Source: a bacterium
GTDB taxonomy: Bacteria; Patescibacteriota; UBA1384; XYA2-FULL-43-10; JAKAMI01
Assembly: GCA_021812945.1 (NCBI GenBank)
Contig: JAKAMI010000003.1
Coordinates: 1 to 54,566 of the forward strand
Reading direction: 5' to 3'
Length of the DNA: 54,566 nucleotides
Shown here: piece after piece, positions 8,175 to 52,003 of the stretch
Numbering within the stretch: position 1 is the stretch's first letter
Layout: each line of letters opens with the position of its first letter
Position numbers and translations under genes: made by a program
The notes under the pieces: generated by a model
Told to the model about the DNA's origin: nothing
Seen by the model: the letters and a program-made list of their open reading frames with translations, nothing else
Databases searched by the model: none

Positions 8175-9188
8175 ATGCCCAAAAACCACCGGCCGGTTTT
8201 GCTAAATGAAGTGGTCAAAGTTTTCGATTATCTCGCAAGGATCAAGAATCCTGTTTTTGTGGATGGCACAATCGGTTTGGCTGGGCACAGCTCTGCAGTA
8301 GCCGAGCAAATATCAATAACCAAGAAACAAGAAACAAACAAATCTCAAATTCCAAACTCCAAACTCCAAATAATTGGAATTGATAAGGACAAGGAGGCGC
8401 TAGACGTAGCAAAATCAAAAATCAAAACTCAACAATCAAAATTATTAAATGATTTCATTTTAGTCAATGATGCGTTAGTCAATGATGCGTTTGAAAACAT
8501 CAAGTCGATATTATCCTCATTGAAAATCGAAAAAGTTGACGGAATTCTTCTGGACCTCGGGGTATCATCCATGCAACTGGACGAAGGGGAGAGGGGATTT
8601 AGTTTTCAAACTGATGCCCCGTTAGATATGCGCATGGACCGGAAACAGAAATTAACTGCCGCCGGTATTGTAAATAAATATCGGGAGGAAGATCTAGTCA
8701 GGATATTTTTCGAATACGGCGAAGAAAAGTTCGCTCGAAGGATCGCTAGCCTGATAATTAAATACCGAAAAGTCGAGTTGATAGAAACAACTTTTGAATT
8801 AGTTGAAATAATAAAGCAGGCGATTCCCAAAAAACTTCAGTTCAGCAAAACCCACCCGGCAACCAACGTTTTTCGGGCTTTACGCATGGAAGTGAACTCT
8901 GAAGTTGTAAAATTAGAGCAGGGGATCAGGGATTGCGTTGATGTTTTAAGTATTGGAGGCCGGCTTGCTATCATCACTTTTCACTCTATCGAAGACCGGA
9001 TTGTCAAACAAACACTCAAAGAATTAGCTGATCCATGTAAATGCCCAAAAGAGATTCCCGAGTGTATATGCGGCCTTAAACCGATTATAAAATTGATAAA
9101 TAAAAAACCGATTACCGCCTCAGAATCGGAGATCGACTCCAATCCTCGCTCCCGCTCCGCCAAACTCCGAATCGCCCAAAAAATCTGA
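8175..9188 (+). CDS. rsmH: 16S rRNA m4C1402 methyltransferase
   Basis: HRPVLL, DGTIGLAGH, DLGVSSMQLD, LDMRM, FHSIEDR, NPRSRSAKLR. Confidence 0.96.
   Translation: MPKNHRPVLLNEVVKVFDYLARIKNPVFVDGTIGLAGHSSAVAEQISITKKQETNKSQIPNSKLQIIGIDKDKEALDVAKSKIKTQQSKLLNDFILVNDALVNDAFENIKSILSSLKIEKVDGILLDLGVSSMQLDEGERGFSFQTDAPLDMRMDRKQKLTAAGIVNKYREEDLVRIFFEYGEEKFARRIASLIIKYRKVELIETTFELVEIIKQAIPKKLQFSKTHPATNVFRALRMEVNSEVVKLEQGIRDCVDVLSIGGRLAIITFHSIEDRIVKQTLKELADPCKCPKEIPECICGLKPIIKLINKKPITASESEIDSNPRSRSAKLRIAQKI
8309..8441. repeat. Two heptamer quasi-arrays translated in frame within rsmH
   Basis: 8309-8368: AATATCA ATAACCA AGAAACA AGAAACA [AACA] AATCTCA AATTCCA AACTCCA AACTCCA (60 nt); 8411-8438: AAAATCA AAAATCA AAACTCA ACAATCA. 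Confidence 0.75.
8460..8489. repeat. Perfect 15-bp tandem duplication in rsmH (LVNDA x2)
   Basis: TTAGTCAATGATGCG repeated twice. Confidence 0.9.
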
Positions 9189-9290: not shown

Positions 9291-9334
9291 ATCTAGAATC
9301 TATATTCCACATTCTATATTCAACATTCAGTACT

Positions 9335-17478: not shown

Positions 17479-17767
17479 ATCTACAAAAGTAGAAATCTTA
17501 TGAAGGTATTAGATGTGAAGTTATTGACGACCCGAAGTACGGATCTACAAAAGTAGAAATCTTATGAAGGTATTAGATCTAGTAAAATATTGGTGTCTTC
17601 ATTTAAATCTACAAAAGTAGAAATCTTATGAAGGTATTAGATTCTTTGGCTTTGTATTTCTCTCCGATATCTACAAAAGTAGAAATCTTATGAAGGTATT
17701 AGATAGTCTGTTGAGTACGCCGATGGTTACGATCTACAAAAGTAGAAATCTTATGAAGGTATTAGAT
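17479..17767 (-). CRISPR. Type V-A CRISPR array: 5 identical 36-nt repeats, 4 spacers (28, 28, 26, 27 nt)
   Basis: Repeats at 17479, 17543, 17607, 17669, 17732; minus-strand repeat ATCTAATACCTTCATAAGATTTCTACTTTTGTAGAT ends in the Cas12a handle TTTCTAC-loop-GTAGAT. Confidence 0.97.
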
Positions 17768-18707
17768 TGGTTTTGTGATTGTAAAGATTAATTAAAAAAT
17801 TAGCATTTCCAACCGCTTTGTTGTAGACTTCAATCCCTTTTTGAGTTAAATACTCATTAAAGTTTGAAATTACAAATAAGTCTTTCTCGATTGGGTATAA
17901 CTCATTGTTTTTTTTATCTTCCAGCACAATTTTTTTACTTTTTAAATATTTATATATTCCCATATATTCGTCCATTTTGTCTGTAAACACCAATATATTG
18001 TCACAAAATCTCGGTAAATTATCATTGACAATCCTAGTAGCAACAGCAGTAGATTTTTCCTGTTTAGTGGTGTAATAGTTCTCGCGATTTTGACTAAAGC
18101 CACTAAAATAAGTAAAGAAACCTTTAAATCTTTTAATGGCATTCAAAATATCATCTTTGGACAACACCTTGTTATCTCGGGTTTCTACCCCGATAAACTC
18201 ATTGACATTTCTTCTAATATATTCCAAAATTCCAACTTCGGTTAAAACTTTAAACCCGCTTTTCTTTAAAATGTTTTTTTTCTTACTATCGAATCCAACT
18301 TTATTTTTGAACACTTCACCCACTTCACTGTAAGCCTTTTCGAATTGCATTCGTAGCTTCTTTTCTTCAATCTCTATTTGTTTATTAAGATGCTGTTTTT
18401 TATTTTTGTCTTGTTCGCTTCTCCGCTTTTCTACTAAGCTAAAATATTTGGAAAATGTAATAATCTTTGCAGTTTTCGATTCCAGTGCACCCGTAATAAA
18501 TTCCCCATGTATTTTATCAAAAATTGGTTTCAATACTTGATATGCATTTTCAATATCTTGATCAACAAGAAAAGTCTGCAACTTTTCATCGAATTGCAAA
18601 TTTTTATTAATATTTTCACGAGTTTTTCCAATCGGCCTTAACTCAAACCTAAGTGTCTTTGTCAGTGCAAACTTCTTTGTAAAAGAATGCCAAATTAATT
18701 TATTCAT
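17751..18707 (-). pseudogene. cas12a: Cas12a (Cpf1) N-terminal fragment (WED-I + REC1, 313 Cas-derived codons) ending inside the first CRISPR repeat
   Basis: FTKKFALTKTLRFELRPIGKT, KGFFTYFSGFSQNRENYY, STAVATRIVNDNLPRFCDN, YLTQKGIEVYN..INLYN; last 5 residues and TAA come from the repeat; no RuvC. Confidence 0.9.
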
Positions 18708-19310: not shown

Positions 19311-19328
19311 GTCTCTCACCTCCTCTCG

Positions 19329-19410
19329 TTTTCAAATTTCAAAACTCTAAATCCTAAACTCTAAGACGTAATTCAATATTCTACATTCTATATTCCAGGT
19401 TCGATATTCT
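19329..19410. repeat. Heptamer quasi-arrays between ymdB and hup
   Basis: ATTTCAA AACTCTA AATCCTA AACTCTA .. ATATTCT ACATTCT ATATTCC; second block matches the array at 9302-9329. Confidence 0.7.
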
Positions 19411-20185
19411 AACCAACTCTTTCGTTTACCAGCTTAACGGATTTTACCGTATTGTCAAGACCAGTCTCAATAATCACGGCATTAAAAATCACCTCGCCTC
19501 GGGGCACCTCGACGCGTATGGGCATCTGGGTCAAAAATCCTTCGACGATTAAGTTTTTATCAGCGCCGATGACCGAGTCCGATACCCCCACCATCCCGAC
19601 ATCGGAGATAAAAGCAGTTTTCTTGTCTGAGATTTGCAAATCGTTGGTCTGGACATGGGTGTGGGTACCGATAATAGCGGCAACTCGGCCGTCGAAATGC
19701 TTAAAGAGGGCGCATTTTTCACTGGTGGCTTCAGCGTGAAAATCGACGATAATGGTTTGATCCGGATGATCTTTGATAATATTTTCAAGCGTTTCAAAAG
19801 GACTTTTAAGGTTGGGTCCGATAAAAACCTGACCGAGCAGATTAACCAAAACGATTTTTCTGCCCAAGACCTCAATCTCGGCCAGGCCGCGGCCGGGTAC
19901 GGCATCCGGGTAGTTGGCCGGCCGGAGCACCTTGGTCTTCTTATCGGCTAGGACAGGGACAAAGTCCCGCTTATCCCAGATGTGGTTTCCGGAAGTGAAA
20001 TAGTCGATGCCGCCTTTGATCATCTCCAGATAATTTTTCTCAGTCATCCCGATTCCGGCGGACAGATTTTCGCCATTGGCCACAACTAGATCGATTTTTT
20101 CCTTCCTCACCAAATCGGGCAACAGTTTTTTAACTGCGTTCCTAGCCGGTCTGCCAAAAATGTCACCGATGAAAAGTAAGTTCAT
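19409..20185 (-). CDS. ymdB: YmdB/TIGR00282 metallophosphoesterase
   Basis: GDIFG, NGEN, SGNH, HAEATSEK, GTHTHVQT; near rny. Confidence 0.92.
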   Translation of the reverse strand: MNLLFIGDIFGRPARNAVKKLLPDLVRKEKIDLVVANGENLSAGIGMTEKNYLEMIKGGIDYFTSGNHIWDKRDFVPVLADKKTKVLRPANYPDAVPGRGLAEIEVLGRKIVLVNLLGQVFIGPNLKSPFETLENIIKDHPDQTIIVDFHAEATSEKCALFKHFDGRVAAIIGTHTHVQTNDLQISDKKTAFISDVGMVGVSDSVIGADKNLIVEGFLTQMPIRVEVPRGEVIFNAVIIETGLDNTVKSVKLVNERVG

Positions 20186-20190
20186 AATTT

Positions 20191-20225
20191 AGTTGAAAGT
20201 CTAAAGTTAAAAGTCGAAAGTCTGA
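20191..20225. repeat. Five-unit heptamer array downstream of the four-helix-bundle gene
   Basis: AGTTGAA AGTCTAA AGTTAAA AGTCGAA AGTCTGA. Confidence 0.85.
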
Positions 20226-20572
20226 GGCCGAATGCTTTTAATAAAACCAGACAAAATCTTTGATATCTCAATTGCTAATAACTGGATCTGATTAAAATTT
20301 TCTCGATCAATATATCCAAGCCTAAGAGCCAAAAAACTCATCGATCTAACCTCGCCACATGATCCTTTGGATATGTAGAGGAATTTTTTTAGTTCTTTGT
20401 CGGTTTGTCGCTCAAAACCCTCGGCAATGTTATTCATTATCGAGACACATGCGCGTTGCACTTGGTCCCTGAAACTGAAGTCTCTATTGTGCTTAAGCAG
20501 GGTGTATATGAGAATCGTAAGCTCTTGGGCTTTTTGCCAGGCGATAATATCTTCAAATTTTCGCATCGTCAT
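20207..20572 (-). CDS. Four-helix-bundle protein (23S rRNA IVS/TIGR02436-like)
   Basis: FEDIIAWQKA, DQVQRACVSIMNNIAEGFER, FLYISKGSCGEV. Confidence 0.93.
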   Translation of the reverse strand: MTMRKFEDIIAWQKAQELTILIYTLLKHNRDFSFRDQVQRACVSIMNNIAEGFERQTDKELKKFLYISKGSCGEVRSMSFLALRLGYIDRENFNQIQLLAIEISKILSGFIKSIRPQTFDF

Positions 20573-20583
20573 TATTCCCCCAG

Positions 20584-20618
20584 TTGGACTTTCAGCTTTA
20601 AGCTTTCAACTTTAGACT
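20584..20618. repeat. Five-unit heptamer array upstream of the four-helix-bundle gene, inverted relative to 20191-20225
   Basis: Reverse complement reads AGTCTAA AGTTGAA AGCTTAA AGCTGAA AGTCCAA. Confidence 0.85.
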
Positions 20619-22141
20619 CACTTGGCGTATTCGATTGCCCGGGTTTCGCGGATCACGTTGACCTTGATCTGGCCCGGGTACTGCATCTCATCCTCAATCC
20701 GTTTGGCGATCTCCTTGGACATCTTGGTCGCGGAGAGATCATCCACGTCTTCCGGTTTCACGATGATACGGATTTCCCGACCGGCCTGGATGGCGTAAGA
20801 TTTTTCAACTCCGGGAAAAGCGTTAGCGATTGTTTCGAGATCCTTGAGTCGCTTGATGTACGATTCCAATGTCTCGCGTCTGGCTCCCGGGCGAGCGCCG
20901 GAGATAGCGTCGGCTGTCTGAACGATGGCCGCCTCGGTAGTCTTGATCTCAACATCTTCGTGGTGGGCTTCAATAGCGTGGATTAGATCGGCTGGCAGAC
21001 CGAACTTTCGAGCAATGTCACCGGAAATGATAGCGTGGCTACCGGGCACATCTTGATCAATAGCTTTGCCCAAGTCGTGCAAAAGTCCGGCCTTTTTGGC
21101 TAGCGCCACGTCTGCGTGAAGCTCTTCGGCCAGCATCCCGGCGATAAATGAGGCTTCGATAGAGTGCTGAAGTTGGTTCTGGCCGTAGGAAGTTCGATAT
21201 TTTAAGCGTCCCAAAACCCGAAGGATCTCCGGAGGCAGGCCGGCAACGCCGACCTCGAAAGCGGCCATCTCGCCAGCTTTTTTGACCTCGACGGCCACCT
21301 CTTCCTTGGCCTTTTCGACCACTTCCTCGATTCGAGTCGGGTGAATCCGGCCATCGGCGACCAATTTGTCCATGGCAACTTTGGCGATCTGGCGCCTGAC
21401 CGGGTCGAAGGAGGAGAGGACAATAACGTCGGGAGTGTCGTCGATGATCACATCCACGCCGGTGGCTTTTTCAAAGGCCTGAATATTTCGGCCCTCGCGA
21501 CCGATGATTCGGCCTTTCATCTCGTCCGAAGGGATAGAGACTGAGGAAACGGTGTTTTCGACGGTGAAGTCTGGAGCCAAGCGCATCATAGCTGTGGCGA
21601 TAGTTTTGCTGGCGTGAGATTGAAGCTCGTCCTTAATGTTCTCCTCTTGCACCTTGATTTTCTTGACCAGCTCGTCTTTACTTTCCTTTTCCACCAAGTC
21701 CAAAAGAACCTTTTTGGCGTCGTCTTTGGACATTTTGGCGATACGCTCCAGGCTTTCTTCCTGTTTCTTGCGGATTTCTCTGAGACTGTTCTTGACCTCG
21801 GCAATAGAATCTTTTTCTTTGGCGATACCGATGCGGGATTTCTCAATGTCGTCCAAGCGGCGCTCAAGAGAATCCTCGCGCCGGCGCAGATTTTTTTCGA
21901 GCTCTACCAGATACTTTTGTCTCTCGGCTTCTTCTTTTTTGGCCGATTCCTTAATCCTTAGAGCCTCGTCTTTGGCTGAGAGGACGATCTCTTTTTCCTG
22001 CTTCTTGGCGCTCTCGACAATGTTTGAAGCTTTGTCTTGGGCGGCTTTAGCTTCCTTGCCGTCTATCAGGCGTTTGATAAATAAACCCAAAACACCACCG
22101 GCTAAGAGGCCGGCGACCGTCAGAATTAGATAAAGCAACAT
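20618..22141 (-). CDS. rny: Ribonuclease Y; probable start ATG 22141
   Basis: N-terminal TM, coiled coil, KH GRIIGREGRNI, HD LLHDLGK. Confidence 0.96.
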   Translation of the reverse strand: MLLYLILTVAGLLAGGVLGLFIKRLIDGKEAKAAQDKASNIVESAKKQEKEIVLSAKDEALRIKESAKKEEAERQKYLVELEKNLRRREDSLERRLDDIEKSRIGIAKEKDSIAEVKNSLREIRKKQEESLERIAKMSKDDAKKVLLDLVEKESKDELVKKIKVQEENIKDELQSHASKTIATAMMRLAPDFTVENTVSSVSIPSDEMKGRIIGREGRNIQAFEKATGVDVIIDDTPDVIVLSSFDPVRRQIAKVAMDKLVADGRIHPTRIEEVVEKAKEEVAVEVKKAGEMAAFEVGVAGLPPEILRVLGRLKYRTSYGQNQLQHSIEASFIAGMLAEELHADVALAKKAGLLHDLGKAIDQDVPGSHAIISGDIARKFGLPADLIHAIEAHHEDVEIKTTEAAIVQTADAISGARPGARRETLESYIKRLKDLETIANAFPGVEKSYAIQAGREIRIIVKPEDVDDLSATKMSKEIAKRIEDEMQYPGQIKVNVIRETRAIEYAK

Positions 22142-22384
22142 TTTCAATTCCTTTCAAAGTGTTCATTTCGCCCCAGTTATTGTCTCGAATTGGTTTCATC
22201 TCGGGCATAAATAACTTGGTAAATATTGGTAAATAATTGATAATCTACATCACATAGTAACTAATAATCCGGTTCTCGTCAAGAAAAGTCGGCTAAAAAA
22301 TGACGAAATGCGGAGGACTGCACCATAAGAATCACATCATCAGAATTGGACAAATGGGATGAAAAATGTTATGGTCACTGTATT

Positions 22385-23713: not shown

Positions 23714-23803
23714 TCCCCTCGCGAAAATACAAACCAAACAAAAATACAAATAAAACGCCGCGCCTATTTACACTTTTGCTTAATTTGTAGATTTGCGAAG
23801 GGA
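23714..23803. repeat. 90-bp MITE-like unit with imperfect 20-bp terminal inverted repeats
   Basis: TCCCCTCGCGAAAATACAAA vs revcomp TCCCTTCGCAAATCTACAAA (16/20); right end identical over 22 nt to 31629-31650. Confidence 0.6.
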
Positions 23804-25787: not shown

Positions 25788-25882
25788 GTCATTCCCGCCT
25801 CTCGGTTTTACTCGAGATAAACTCCGGCGGGAATCTACTCTATCAATTATTAGTGGATTCGCACGCCTCAAGCGGGGATGAC
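25788..25882. repeat. GTCAT..ATGAC REP-like composite palindrome
   Basis: GTCATTCCCGC..GCGGGAATC..GGATTC..GCGGGGATGAC. Confidence 0.75.
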
Positions 25883-26238: not shown

Positions 26239-26283
26239 ATTCTATTTCTTATTACTTACTGCTTAATACTTACTTCTTGTTGC

Positions 26284-27024: not shown

Positions 27025-27113
27025 GTCATTCCGGACCCCGTATCTAGTACGGGGCAGGCCAGATCGGGAATCCAGACGGATAACTCATGGATCCTTCGCA
27101 AGCTCAGGATGAC
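27025..27113. repeat. GTCAT..ATGAC REP-like element in the infC leader with nested palindrome
   Basis: GTCATTCCGGAC-CCCCGTA.TACGGGG..GATCGGGAATCC..GGATCC..GCTCAGGATGAC. Confidence 0.7.
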
Positions 27114-27958: not shown

Positions 27959-28023
27959 GATAGAAATATCAAAAATCAAATATCAAATATCAAAAATTCT
28001 AGGCAAAATCAGTTGATTCGATA

Positions 28024-28386: not shown

Positions 28387-28700
28387 ACTCCGTCCTTTCC
28401 TTTTTTAAGAGATTTATTATTTATTGCTTCTTTAAGGATAACAAATAATATTGGCGAGTAAAAGACGCCAGAGCACTAACGCGCTCTTTCCCTCACGAAA
28501 GTACAAAATGATACAAAAGTACAAAAAATATCCCAGCCAACGCACCGACTGACTCTTGCGGAGGCTTGACGAATCTGGTATACTTTGTCCGCTTGTTACA
28601 GATTTTTTAATATGAGGTAGCGACCGCCACAGATTAGTCCCAGGGTCAATGGATAATCAGTGGAATTGATCAATGAATGTCGCGGTTTCAATCAAAGAGA

Positions 28701-31556: not shown

Positions 31557-31655
31557 CATTGTTAACGCTTCAGATCTTAACTATAGACCGATTAATAGAT
31601 CAGTACTATCTTTTTTGTACTTTTGTAAAATTTGTAGATTTGCGAAGGGAAGTTG

Positions 31656-33298: not shown

Positions 33299-33335
33299 TT
33301 TTCTACTGTCCACCCGGCGGGTGGACAGTAGAAAA
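33299..33335. repeat. REP palindrome left of RAYT
   Basis: Perfect 17-bp stem TTTTCTACTGTCCACCC-GGC-GGGTGGACAGTAGAAAA. Confidence 0.92.
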
Positions 33336-33356
33336 TCATTCATGTAAAATACAACT

Positions 33357-34028
33357 ATGGTGACGGCAAGAAAGCTAGTCTTTAAGGATGGGTATTATTA
33401 CCACGTTTTCAATCGCGGAGTTGATAAGCGTGATATTTGCACCTGCAATGCCGATTACAATCGAGTGATAGAGACCTTCATGTTGTACAAATATAAAGAT
33501 CCCGAGGTAAAGTATTCTCGGTTCAAGGATTATTCTGATATTAAAAAGAATGAAGTGTTTGATAAACTCAAGCAAAGGGGAGATGTTTTAGTAGATATAA
33601 TCGGATTTTGTTTGATGCCTACTCATTTTCATTTTCTCTTGAGACAGACACAATCCGGTGGCATATCCGAGTTCCTTTCAAATATTACAAATAGTTACAC
33701 CAAATATTTTAATACAAAATACAAGCGTTCGGGTTATTTATTCCAGGGAAGTTTTAAGGCAGTGTTGATCGAGGATGACCAACAATTGATGCACATATCT
33801 CGATATATCCATCTTAATCCAGTTGCGTCCAAGATCTCAACTATCGAAGATCTTTCAAAATATCCATGGTCGTCGTATTGGGAGTATGTCGGTAAGAATC
33901 GGAGCGTTTGCAATCCAGAACCAATTCTTGAACTGTTCGGTTCAGAGAAGCGGTATGTCGAATTTGTTGCTAATTATGCCGATACGGCAATACGCTTACA
34001 CGATCACAAAGATCTAGATTTGGACTGA
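33357..34028 (+). mobile_element. REP-associated tyrosine transposase (RAYT, Y1 HUH)
   Basis: YYHVFNRG, FCLMPTHFH (HUH), YIHLNPV (catalytic Tyr), YPWSSY; REP hairpins on both sides. Confidence 0.92.
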
Positions 34029-34029
34029 T

Positions 34030-34066
34030 AATTCTACTGTCCACCCGCCGGGTGGACAGTAGAATT
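34030..34066. repeat. REP palindrome right of RAYT, inverted relative to the left copy
   Basis: Perfect 17-bp stem AATTCTACTGTCCACCC-GCC-GGGTGGACAGTAGAATT. Confidence 0.92.
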
Positions 34067-42164: not shown

Positions 42165-42210
42165 ATTTTCAAGTATCAATATTCAATTAAGTATCAATTA
42201 TCAAGTATCG
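42165..42210. repeat. Heptamer quasi-array upstream of tRNA-Pro
   Basis: AGTATCA ATATTCA [ATTA] AGTATCA ATTATCA AGTATCG. Confidence 0.65.
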
Positions 42211-42245
42211 AGTGCAACAGCGAGTACATTTTACCAGGTCTGAGG

Positions 42246-51911: not shown

Positions 51912-52003
51912 GACCGCCACAGATTAATTCCACAGATCGGGACAGGATCCCTGCCTGCCGGCAGGCAGGAGTGGATAATCAGTGGGATCAATCTGTGGAG
52001 GTC
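51912..52003. repeat. MITE-like element between rpsM and rpsK with central 20-nt palindrome
   Basis: TIR GACCGCCACAGATT / AATCTGTGGAGGTC (13/14); CCTGCCTGCCGGCAGGCAGG 51950-51969; related copy at 28622-28663. Confidence 0.75.

Follow-up and report, generated by a model that had tools for sequence, protein, structure and literature searches.

A PF05635 Four-Helix-Bundle Gene between Inverted Heptamer Arrays at the rny–ymdB Junction of a Patescibacteria Genome and Its Likeness to rRNA Intervening Sequences

Results

Contig JAKAMI010000003.1 of a bacterium of the Patescibacteria (Candidate Phyla Radiation, CPR; assembly GCA_021812945.1) was analysed over a stretch of 54,566 nt, called the window throughout, and the subject of this study is one cassette within it, namely a small gene of the PF05635/TIGR02436 family lying between two inverted arrays of tandem heptamers at the junction of the genes rny and ymdB. 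All features of the cassette are on the minus strand and are given as window positions (Table 1). The 5' array follows rny without a gap, its first base being the A of the TGA stop codon (20620-20618), and the unit type of the 3' arm is the reverse complement of that of the 5' arm. The enclosed open reading frame (ORF), which may alternatively start at a second ATG at 20566 and would then encode 119 aa, runs into the 3' arm. Its 3' end reads ...CGG CCT CAG ACT TTC GAC TTT TAA with the TAA falling within the third 3' unit, and its last seven codons (RPQTFDF) are thus encoded by the array and are missing in homologues, which end ...SGFIKTL. The gene following ymdB is that of HU. The cassette is present in the window in one copy, its site is an intergenic junction and not an rRNA helix, and it has no transposase, PF05635 being the sole Pfam match of the enclosed gene (no HUH/Y1 domain).

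Table 1. Features of the cassette and its host genes in the window.
Feature	Position	Strand	Evidence
rny (RNase Y), upstream host gene	22147..20618	minus	TIGR03319 3e-193
5' arm, five tandem heptamers: AGTCTAA AGTTGAA AGCTTAA AGCTGAA AGTCCAA	20618..20584	minus	sequence
Leader CTGGGGGAATA, G-rich Shine-Dalgarno-like run ahead of the start of the four-helix-bundle ORF	20583..20573	minus	sequence
Four-helix-bundle gene, PF05635/TIGR02436, 121 aa	20572..20207	minus	PF05635 2.6e-32, TIGR02436 2.5e-31
3' arm, five inverted heptamers: TCAGACT TTCGACT TTTAACT TTAGACT TTCAACT	20225..20191	minus	sequence
Spacer AAATT, 5 nt, between 3' arm and ymdB start codon	20190..20186	minus	sequence
ymdB (TIGR00282 metallophosphoesterase), downstream host gene	20185..19409	minus	PF13277 9e-90

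The two arrays stand out from the window both as repeats and as complementary arms. Three consecutive units of the form AGYNNAA with at most one mismatch were matched seven times against an expectation of 0.08, and six of these matches lie in the cassette. An inverted-repeat search returned arms of 28 nt at 82% and of 37 nt at 73% complementarity, and the duplex between the arms was calculated at -28.4 kcal/mol compared with -10.1 +/- 2.8 kcal/mol for shuffled sequences, none of 2000 shuffles doing as well. Pairing is possible in several registers, with 27 of 35 positions matched in register 0, 25 of 28 in register +7, and 23 of 28 in register -7. In the minimum-free-energy fold of 20630..20180, the ORF is looped out by an outer helix of 17 bp (z = -2.5). 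Terminal inverted repeats, as in transposons with such ends or in MITEs (miniature transposable elements with inverted repeats), are therefore present at the cassette, as are units of 7 nt repeated in tandem and paired in inverted orientation between genes transcribed together, the arrangement of hairpins of the short tandemly repeated repetitive (STRR) type. An initial annotation, made from the letters of this DNA, had described five heptamers starting at the rny stop and five inverted ones ending 5 nt before the ymdB ATG, and had proposed that they form an imperfect, register-tolerant stem looping out an ORF with no recognisable transposase; its coordinates, counts, and distances are correct, no transposase was recognised, and the stem is reproduced by the predictions given here.

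Further arrays with a period of 7 nt, all of them degenerate, were observed elsewhere in the window at 19320-19411, 26243-26278, 9299-9329, 27964-27994, 42169-42213, 2548-2578, and 8321-8441. They fill operon spacers (ymdB|HU, upstream of rplT, and others), and two of them fall within coding sequence, one being a low-complexity insert of rsmH. Tested as ORF-less hairpins, they proved to be single-armed and not to fold (z >= 0 for most), and they are a phenomenon separate from the arrays of the cassette. In relatives, the ymdB|HU spacer carries different 7-mers, such as four copies of AATTTAN in locus L186.

The enclosed gene scored 111.6 bits against PF05635 (cut-off 33.8) and 108.1 bits against TIGR02436 (cut-off 24). 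The protein has more than 7000 homologues. The 120 best of these are 61-71% identical to the window protein, with a best non-self match of 71%, and those of the 120 that carry a name come from Patescibacteria. The homologues have a typical length of 114 aa and share invariant NNIAEGFE and KGSxxE.RS motifs. The AlphaFold2 model (predicted local distance difference test, pLDDT, 93) is a bundle of four helices, and Foldseek placed it closest to the Protein Data Bank (PDB) entries 2GSC (template modelling (TM) score 0.88) and 2RLD (TM 0.80), followed by Avd proteins of diversity-generating retroelements (DGRs; 4DWL and 8UB7, TM ~0.77). Entries 2GSC and 2RLD comprise five chains each, and the 2GSC protein is of the XCC0516 type from Xanthomonas. 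By homology, the window protein may thus be described as an Avd-like, nucleic-acid-binding pentamer, in line with the TIGR02436-like, Avd-related nature assigned to it in the initial annotation. No reverse-transcriptase domain was detected in the scanned ORFs of the window; template and variable repeats were not searched for separately.

The history of the junction was traced in relatives ordered by the identity of their YmdB to that of the window, which were found via protein homologues and contig look-ups; a contig search with YmdB itself gave only relatives from other phyla with at most 50% identity, unsuited to a search for empty sites. At 83% YmdB identity (L186-188), the contig begins inside an ACTTT array abutting the ymdB ATG. 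At 74% (L196), there are two arrays around a PF05635 pseudogene, whose start codon has changed from ATG to ATA and whose codon for the conserved Glu72 is TAG. At 70% (L189), two arrays enclose an intact gene of 114 aa whose product is 66% identical to the window protein, with units of 8-9 nt and not 7, so that unit length has changed in both arms jointly between this locus and the window. At 63% (L192/193), the site is empty and reads rny TAA-AAAAAT-ATG ymdB with a spacer of 6 nt, and at about 60% (L195), two arrays surround 140 nt of non-coding sequence. The ORF can thus decay while the arrays persist (L195, L196). In other phyla, rny and ymdB are neighbours in 66 of 80 loci, which agrees with the statement of the initial annotation that the two genes are commonly adjacent, and a PF05635 gene lies between them in none.

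Because of this ordered series, the cassette reads as old and vertically inherited in this lineage, and not as recently mobile. The elements of the initial interpretation that were put to the test were all supported, and neither of the two observations named there as refuting it was made: relatives that retain the gene at this junction always have arrays with it, the comparison with empty sites yielded the one junction described above, and arrays and gene family are associated, as shown below. As a separate observation, the ORF-less cassette of L195 contains at 2320-2440 a GTCATTGCGAG...CAATCTCC segment, which resembles short GTCATTCC...GGGAATC inverted elements in two spacers of the window (~25790-25835 and ~27025-27075).

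The association of arrays and gene family was then assessed in 75 non-redundant CPR loci from a metagenome scan, using 174 ORFs of those loci as controls. On average, the 70 nt upstream of the gene contained 4.0 AAGT and 0.2 ACTT per locus, and the downstream flank 4.2 ACTT and 0.3 AAGT. At least three AAGT upstream together with at least three ACTT downstream were found in 54 of the 75 loci and around none of the control ORFs, a very strong statistical association between arrays and four-helix-bundle genes of the kind on which the first interpretation had been made to depend. The 521 kb of CPR loci contained 190 arrays of at least four units, of which 157 were at most 150 nt from a PF05635 gene, and the 513 kb of ymdB loci taken from other phyla contained none. 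The cassette design is shared by homologues placed in unrelated contexts (YfhO|GT4, GT2|GT2, or downstream of alaS), with units of AAAGT(C/T) upstream at a spacing of 7-10 nt and (G/A)ACTTT downstream. The cassette fills operon spacers, because its neighbours are mostly co-oriented (upstream in 63 of 66 cases, downstream in 58 of 65) and the gaps to them are short (medians 50 and 43 nt); about 110 related loci are ordinary operon contexts. No PF05635 gene was located inside rRNA in 109 CPR loci with an E. coli rrn probe, although in one of them 23S sequence was present on the opposite strand at a distance of 1.2 kb.

The CPR elements have between 3 and 25 units per arm (median 4) with a period of 7-9 nt, and their outermost units tend to TAGT...ACTA at both ends. 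Copy number differs even between strains with an identical protein (three units in L010, one in L016), and period and copy number of the two arms are weakly correlated (rho 0.29 and 0.25, not significant). In many genes, the coding sequence at the end of the ORF (AAA ACT TTA TAA) doubles as the first 3' unit; the C-terminus IKTL* was present in 42 of 75 genes, and ACTT lay within the last 15 nt in 40 of 75. A Shine-Dalgarno-like tetramer was present in just 11 of the 75 genes. A role of the arrays as promoter or Shine-Dalgarno sequence was dropped by eye, spacings being inconsistent and arrays abutting start codons, and the idea that five units match a pentamer was ruled out by the range of unit numbers. 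Inverted arrays without an ORF were seen elsewhere in the CPR loci L119, L123, L138, L139, L167, and L184. Many metagenome contigs (L018-L025, L186-L188) stop within or just past arrays, at which short-read assembly apparently breaks, and the cassettes are probably under-counted in metagenome-assembled genomes. As a rough extrapolation from the sampled loci, CPR genomes keep in the order of ten cassettes each.

When whole CPR elements were folded, 66 of 77 had 15 or more base pairs between the 5' and 3' arms (median 32), compared with 30 of 150 control segments. Cognate arms paired at -35.7 kcal/mol, non-cognate arms taken from different loci at -29.7 kcal/mol, and after double-centring the advantage of the cognate arms amounted to -5.9 kcal/mol, being below zero in 89% of the loci (permutation p < 5e-5). 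Cognate arms also had more 8-mers in common than non-cognate arms.

The design was next examined outside the CPR in 29 loci from Cyanobacteriota, Bacteroidota, Alpha- and Gammaproteobacteria, Gemmatimonadota, and viral contigs, with 26 non-CPR loci being those from tblastn against plasmids (cyanobacteria, Riemerella, Azospirillum, Gemmatirosa) and from IMG/VR contigs. Tandem arrays of 7-9 nt accompanied the gene in 27 of the 29 loci, mostly inverted and with a unit differing per element: GGGAAAA, AAGGTTY, GGTGACA, AGTCAGG, GGGAGTA, GGAGATA, GGGTGTA, GGCAGAG, GGGAGCA, CAGGGGAG, and others. For most flanks a period of 7 was the best; in a first batch this held for 13 of 18 flanks upstream and for 16 of 18 downstream, and in a second batch the best period was 7-9. 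The score for an inverted repeat between the two flanks exceeded shuffled sequences by z > 6 in 18 of 26 loci; among these 26 there were three with direct arrays, two with a 3' array only, one with a weak, non-significant array (L199), and one with none (L212). The IMG/VR contigs contributed four distant homologues (37-41% identity) with the flanking heptamers AACGTTG, AAGCTAA, and AAATTTG, and no homologue was matched in a phage collection.

Across cyanobacterial orders and genomic contexts, the protein clade tracks the unit. The proteins of Nostoc 7120 and Stanieria are 80% identical and both have GGCAGAG units, those of Calothrix and Pseudanabaena are 74% identical and both have AAGCTAA units. 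In the Pseudanabaena locus (L208), the two arrays are in direct orientation, with about 15 units of AAAGCTA on the upstream side and more than 10 of AAAGCCA on the downstream side. In Xanthomonas and Dokdonella (L225-L231), an XCC0516-type gene conserved across Xanthomonadales lies between accB and accC, with GGGAATC-type units upstream and their complement downstream, ending at the accC ATG. Near-identical Nostoc plasmids differ at two junctions, whose flanking proteins are 91-100% identical; at each, one strain has a cassette and the other an empty site, and the cassette type differs between the junctions; because of these occupied and empty junctions, the plasmids indicate that whole cassettes have recently been gained or lost. 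A possible duplication of ATG or TTCTRA in these pairs is confounded by the similarity to repeat units and by selection on start and stop codons. PF05635 cassettes were also observed inside cas operons, namely between cas6 and cas4 in both Anabaena sp. 90 and Pseudanabaena and between cas10 and cmr3 in Picosynechococcus (L203, L208, L213), and these may explain why the family has been scored as CRISPR-associated in large screens (PMC10910872).

In Azospirillum, the gene and its inverted GGACAGA/GGACGGA heptamers interrupt a 23S rRNA gene (Rfam large-subunit model, LSU, 2139 bits). The flanking sequence CCGAAGCUGCGG is taken to be the one next to helix 45 of E. coli 23S rRNA, and the insertion is probably in helix 45. 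The likeness to an mRNA intervening sequence (IVS) noted in the initial annotation is supported here by an rRNA IVS that itself has gene and inverted heptamers.

Some further features of the window were recorded. Five copies of ATCTACAAAAGTAGAAATC, presumably a Cas12a-type CRISPR repeat, at 17479-17750 abut an ORF of 318 aa (18707..17751, minus strand), the sole Pfam match of which is the REC1 'alpha helical recognition lobe' (PF18501) and the N-terminus of which was read as Cas12a-like. The next genes encode Fic and DUF4238; cas1, cas2, or cas4 were not recognised by Pfam, and 17479-18707 looks like a truncated type V-A locus; its Cas12a-fragment gene adjoins the HU gene in conspecific contigs too. 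An IS200-like Y1 transposase gene at 33357-34028 (PF01797 4e-9, within 33303-34062) is placed between two near-identical perfect palindromes CTACTGTCCACCCG(G/C)CGGGTGGACAGTAG, similar to the arrangement of repetitive extragenic palindromic (REP) sequences with REP-associated tyrosine transposases (RAYTs). An exact 20-nt repeat TTTGTAGATTTGCGAAGGGA is found at 23784-23803 and 31631-31650, just 3' of two minus-strand genes, and a module CCGCCACAGATTA...GGATAATCAGTG is common to 28624-28662 and 51914-51984, upstream of uvrA and rpsK; both may be regulatory or small-RNA elements.

Discussion

Here, we have described a gene between inverted heptamer arrays that very probably represents an IVS-homologous cassette inserted at the rny|ymdB junction. 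What was taken as an analogy to intervening sequences seems to be homology that extends to the entire element, because a genuine 23S rRNA IVS, that of Azospirillum, has the same design of gene plus inverted heptamers. Overall, we favour, as a moderately probable account, an IVS-type cassette that consists of gene and inverted arrays, is co-transcribed with its host genes, and has arms forming a stem. A promoterless PF05635 gene with its arrays would have entered a spacer of about 6 nt between rny and ymdB in an ancestor of this CPR lineage and would have been inherited vertically since. Sitting at a stop|start junction of the operon, it would be read through by host transcription, and in the resulting RNA its 5' array, which is A-rich, would pair with its U-rich 3' array in several 7-nt registers to a stem of 17-37 bp with the ORF looped out. 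RNase III, which is specific for double strands, probably cuts this stem, by analogy with rRNA IVSs; for processing of this type we see an even chance. Such a cut would part the rny message from that of ymdB and set free a small mRNA of the four-helix-bundle protein, capped by stem sequence. The arrays probably turn over fast by slippage with both arms retaining one common unit, and the protein probably serves the cassette, not the operon, and may decay while the arrays persist.

Several observations weigh against this account. Unit variants look genome-specific, with L119 and L123 using one variant in gene-bearing and gene-less arrays, and for this reason part of the cognate-arm signal may come from concerted evolution within genomes and not from pairing in cis. 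Mismatches between the arms comprised 51 G.U and 51 A.C, so that G.U is not in excess and there is no mark of selection on the sense RNA specifically; transversions predominated (166). The polarity of the CPR arrays is always A-rich first, which a pure requirement for a stem would not predict, and the model of a stem fails in Pseudanabaena (L208), Oscillatoria (L217), and Gemmatirosa (L219), whose arrays are direct and not inverted. No RNase III gene is among the annotated ORFs of the window. Finally, the protein is strongly conserved, with about 65% identity across the CPR, which argues for a role beyond that of a passenger. The strand-symmetric mismatches and the A-rich-first polarity, together with the match of protein clade to unit and the presence of a dispersed repeat on the flanks of the Xanthomonas gene, suggest that more than a stem is involved and that the protein may act on the arrays.

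Carried further, this leads to a reading in which the PF05635 protein is a trans-acting partner that binds, spreads, or maintains cognate arrays at the DNA level, similar to RAYTs and REP sequences, the RNA stem being a by-product. We regard this as possible, though clearly the less probable choice. The tracking of heptamer type by protein clade (Nostoc/Stanieria and Calothrix/Pseudanabaena) fits it, though a common unit would also be expected from co-inheritance of the gene and its arms. The Xanthomonas gene is flanked by GGGAATC, a unit reported at about 186 sites per genome of which 70-75 are paired convergently, and ORF-less inverted arrays exist in CPR loci as well; the persistence of arrays with the ORF dead or gone (L195, L196, Coxiella) speaks against this reading. 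The recent gain or loss of whole cassettes in Nostoc, the strand-symmetric mismatch spectrum, and the tendency of the outermost units to TAGT...ACTA at both ends are further points in its favour, but the candidate target-site duplication in the Nostoc pairs is ambiguous, the CPR copies are not near-identical (the best non-self protein match being 71%), and the family has no known catalytic motif. No evidence of RAYT-like dissemination in trans was obtained. In its general form, the suggestion that PF05635 proteins are the missing trans-acting partner of tandem heptamers, comprising STRRs, GGGAATC, the CPR AAAGT units, and the stems of rRNA IVSs, is likewise a tentative one. If true, every lineage of the protein would have a 7-nt unit of its own to recognise, nucleate, or maintain, and the gene between arrays would be the 'master' copy, a functional parallel to RAYT/REP built on a non-enzymatic-looking, Avd-like pentamer.

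That the inverted arrays are instead a host-serving hairpin of the operon, acting in mRNA stability, transcript segmentation, or translation coupling of rny and ymdB, with the gene as a dispensable passenger, seems unlikely to us. Arrays at rny|ymdB are kept where the gene is a pseudogene or absent, they abut the upstream stop and the downstream start, and roles of this kind are proposed in the passages on STRR hairpins, with their 7-bp units between co-transcribed genes, in PMC2670836. Strong purifying selection on the protein does not suit a passenger, however, and one relative manages with a spacer of 6 nt as most bacteria do without such a structure at rny|ymdB; recurrence of the design in rRNA and between unrelated genes suggests that the cassette, and not the operon, is the unit. 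Far less probable is a role of the gene as Avd accessory factor in a DGR. PF05635 models do match Avd (PMC10053308), and the fold reaches a TM of ~0.77 to it, but the closest structures (2GSC, 2RLD) are not from DGRs, the neighbours are rny and ymdB, and the ~110 related loci are ordinary operons; with this operon context and no reverse transcriptase in the scanned window ORFs, membership in a DGR was rejected. Chance low complexity or neutral slippage in an AT-rich spacer, which the other period-7 arrays in spacers of the window might bring to mind, has a negligible probability, since the pattern is far above expectation, the arms are mutually complementary while the other arrays are single-armed and unstructured, and the arrangement recurs around homologous genes in five phyla.

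The cassette account thus ties together what may be one problem, namely the role of the S23/IVS protein, the existence of IVSs in rRNA, and the purpose of cyanobacterial and Xanthomonas heptamers: in at least five phyla, PF05635 genes lie between inverted, lineage-specific 7-nt arrays, in mRNA operons as well as in rRNA. For annotation, it matters that such cassettes split operons, including cyanobacterial cas operons, break metagenome assemblies, and may give rise to spurious 'CRISPR-associated' calls. About ten cassettes in a tiny CPR genome, by rough extrapolation, would be a notable retention.

Comparison with Known Systems

The closest known counterparts are the 23S rRNA IVSs with an S23p/PF05635 ORF of Leptospira and Coxiella, which share the protein family with the window cassette and likewise have an ORF between complementary termini forming a long stem. 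The helix-45 IVS of Coxiella burnetii has an S23p ORF within terminal inverted repeats and a stem of 28 bp; Coxiella RNase III cleaves it in vitro, and rapid amplification of cDNA ends (RACE) places the in vivo ends midway along the stem (PMC4990558). Two to three tandem GACAGAT heptamers, variable in number between strains, precede its ATG, and the first of them is the site of the 5' cut; the ORF is in decay, and the authors rate the RNA as more relevant than the protein (PMC4990558). Tandem heptamers of variable copy number in the 5' part, a decay-prone ORF with a persisting RNA element, and co-transcription with the host gene are thus common to the rRNA IVS and our cassette, and with the Azospirillum IVS the cassette also shares inverted heptamer arrays (GGACAGA-type). 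Insertions in 16S and 23S rRNA of CPR bacteria contain PF05635 ORFs, too (PMC11270868). In contrast to the rRNA IVS, which lies within an rRNA helix, the window cassette is found between two protein-coding genes, the CPR units (AAAGT-type, 7-9 nt) differ from those of rRNA IVSs, and RNase III cleavage, demonstrated for rRNA IVSs, is putative for the window cassette.

Tandem 7-nt units in intergenic regions of operons, often in convergent pairs, capable of forming hairpins and variable in copy number, connect the cassette to cyanobacterial STRRs, to GGGAATC in Xanthomonas, and to GGGGAYT in Nostoc. In the passages on STRRs in PMC2670836, these are presented as 7-bp tandem repeats forming hairpins between co-transcribed genes, with an unexplained function and with no mention of PF05635 genes. 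About 186 GGGAATC arrays were reported for Xanthomonas, with 70-75 cases of two convergent, close arrays, and GGGGAYT arrays for Nostoc, the role of both being 'still to be elucidated' (Rehm et al. 2015, PMC4692102); the text makes no mention of S23 or four-helix-bundle genes. Nevertheless, PF05635 genes of Nostoc, Anabaena, Calothrix, and others, and the accB|accC gene of Xanthomonas, lie between STRR- or GGGAATC-like arrays. Unlike the cassette, most of these arrays enclose no gene in their genomes, and since CPR units are A/T-rich and cyanobacterial and Xanthomonas units G-rich, ideas on G-quadruplexes do not carry over.

REP sequences and their hairpin-forming doublets (REPINs) with a RAYT present one small gene between inverted short repeats that are also found without a gene, an arrangement that the cassette may share. 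In our case, candidates for such gene-less repeats are the ORF-less arrays in CPR loci and, as reported, the dispersed GGGAATC of Xanthomonas (PMC4692102). The protein of the cassette is a four-helix bundle and not an HUH/Y1 transposase, and its repeats are tandem arrays and not single palindromes. The Avd proteins of DGRs have the four-helix-bundle fold in common with the window protein (Foldseek TM ~0.77), homologues of which crystallise as five chains; sequence identity is about 10%, and the cassette differs from DGRs in its ordinary operon and in the absence of a reverse transcriptase from the scanned window ORFs. Correia elements of Neisseria are MITE-like, co-transcribed, and cut by RNase III, with inverted repeats in operon spacers that fold in the transcript; they lack a conserved ORF and have defined terminal repeats with target duplications as well as many near-identical copies. 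MITEs of this type resemble the cassette as inverted-repeat insertions in operon spacers and differ from it in being ORF-less and in their many near-identical copies. TIGR-Tas arrays, the units of which we take to be about 36 nt long, were set aside for this length.

In an incomplete literature collection, we found no paper linking PF05635 genes to heptamer arrays outside rRNA, which does not show that none exists. IVS elements and heptamer hairpins already represent this kind of element; what looks new is its operon-resident form in the CPR and the rule, holding across phyla, that PF05635 genes lie between inverted tandem heptamers.

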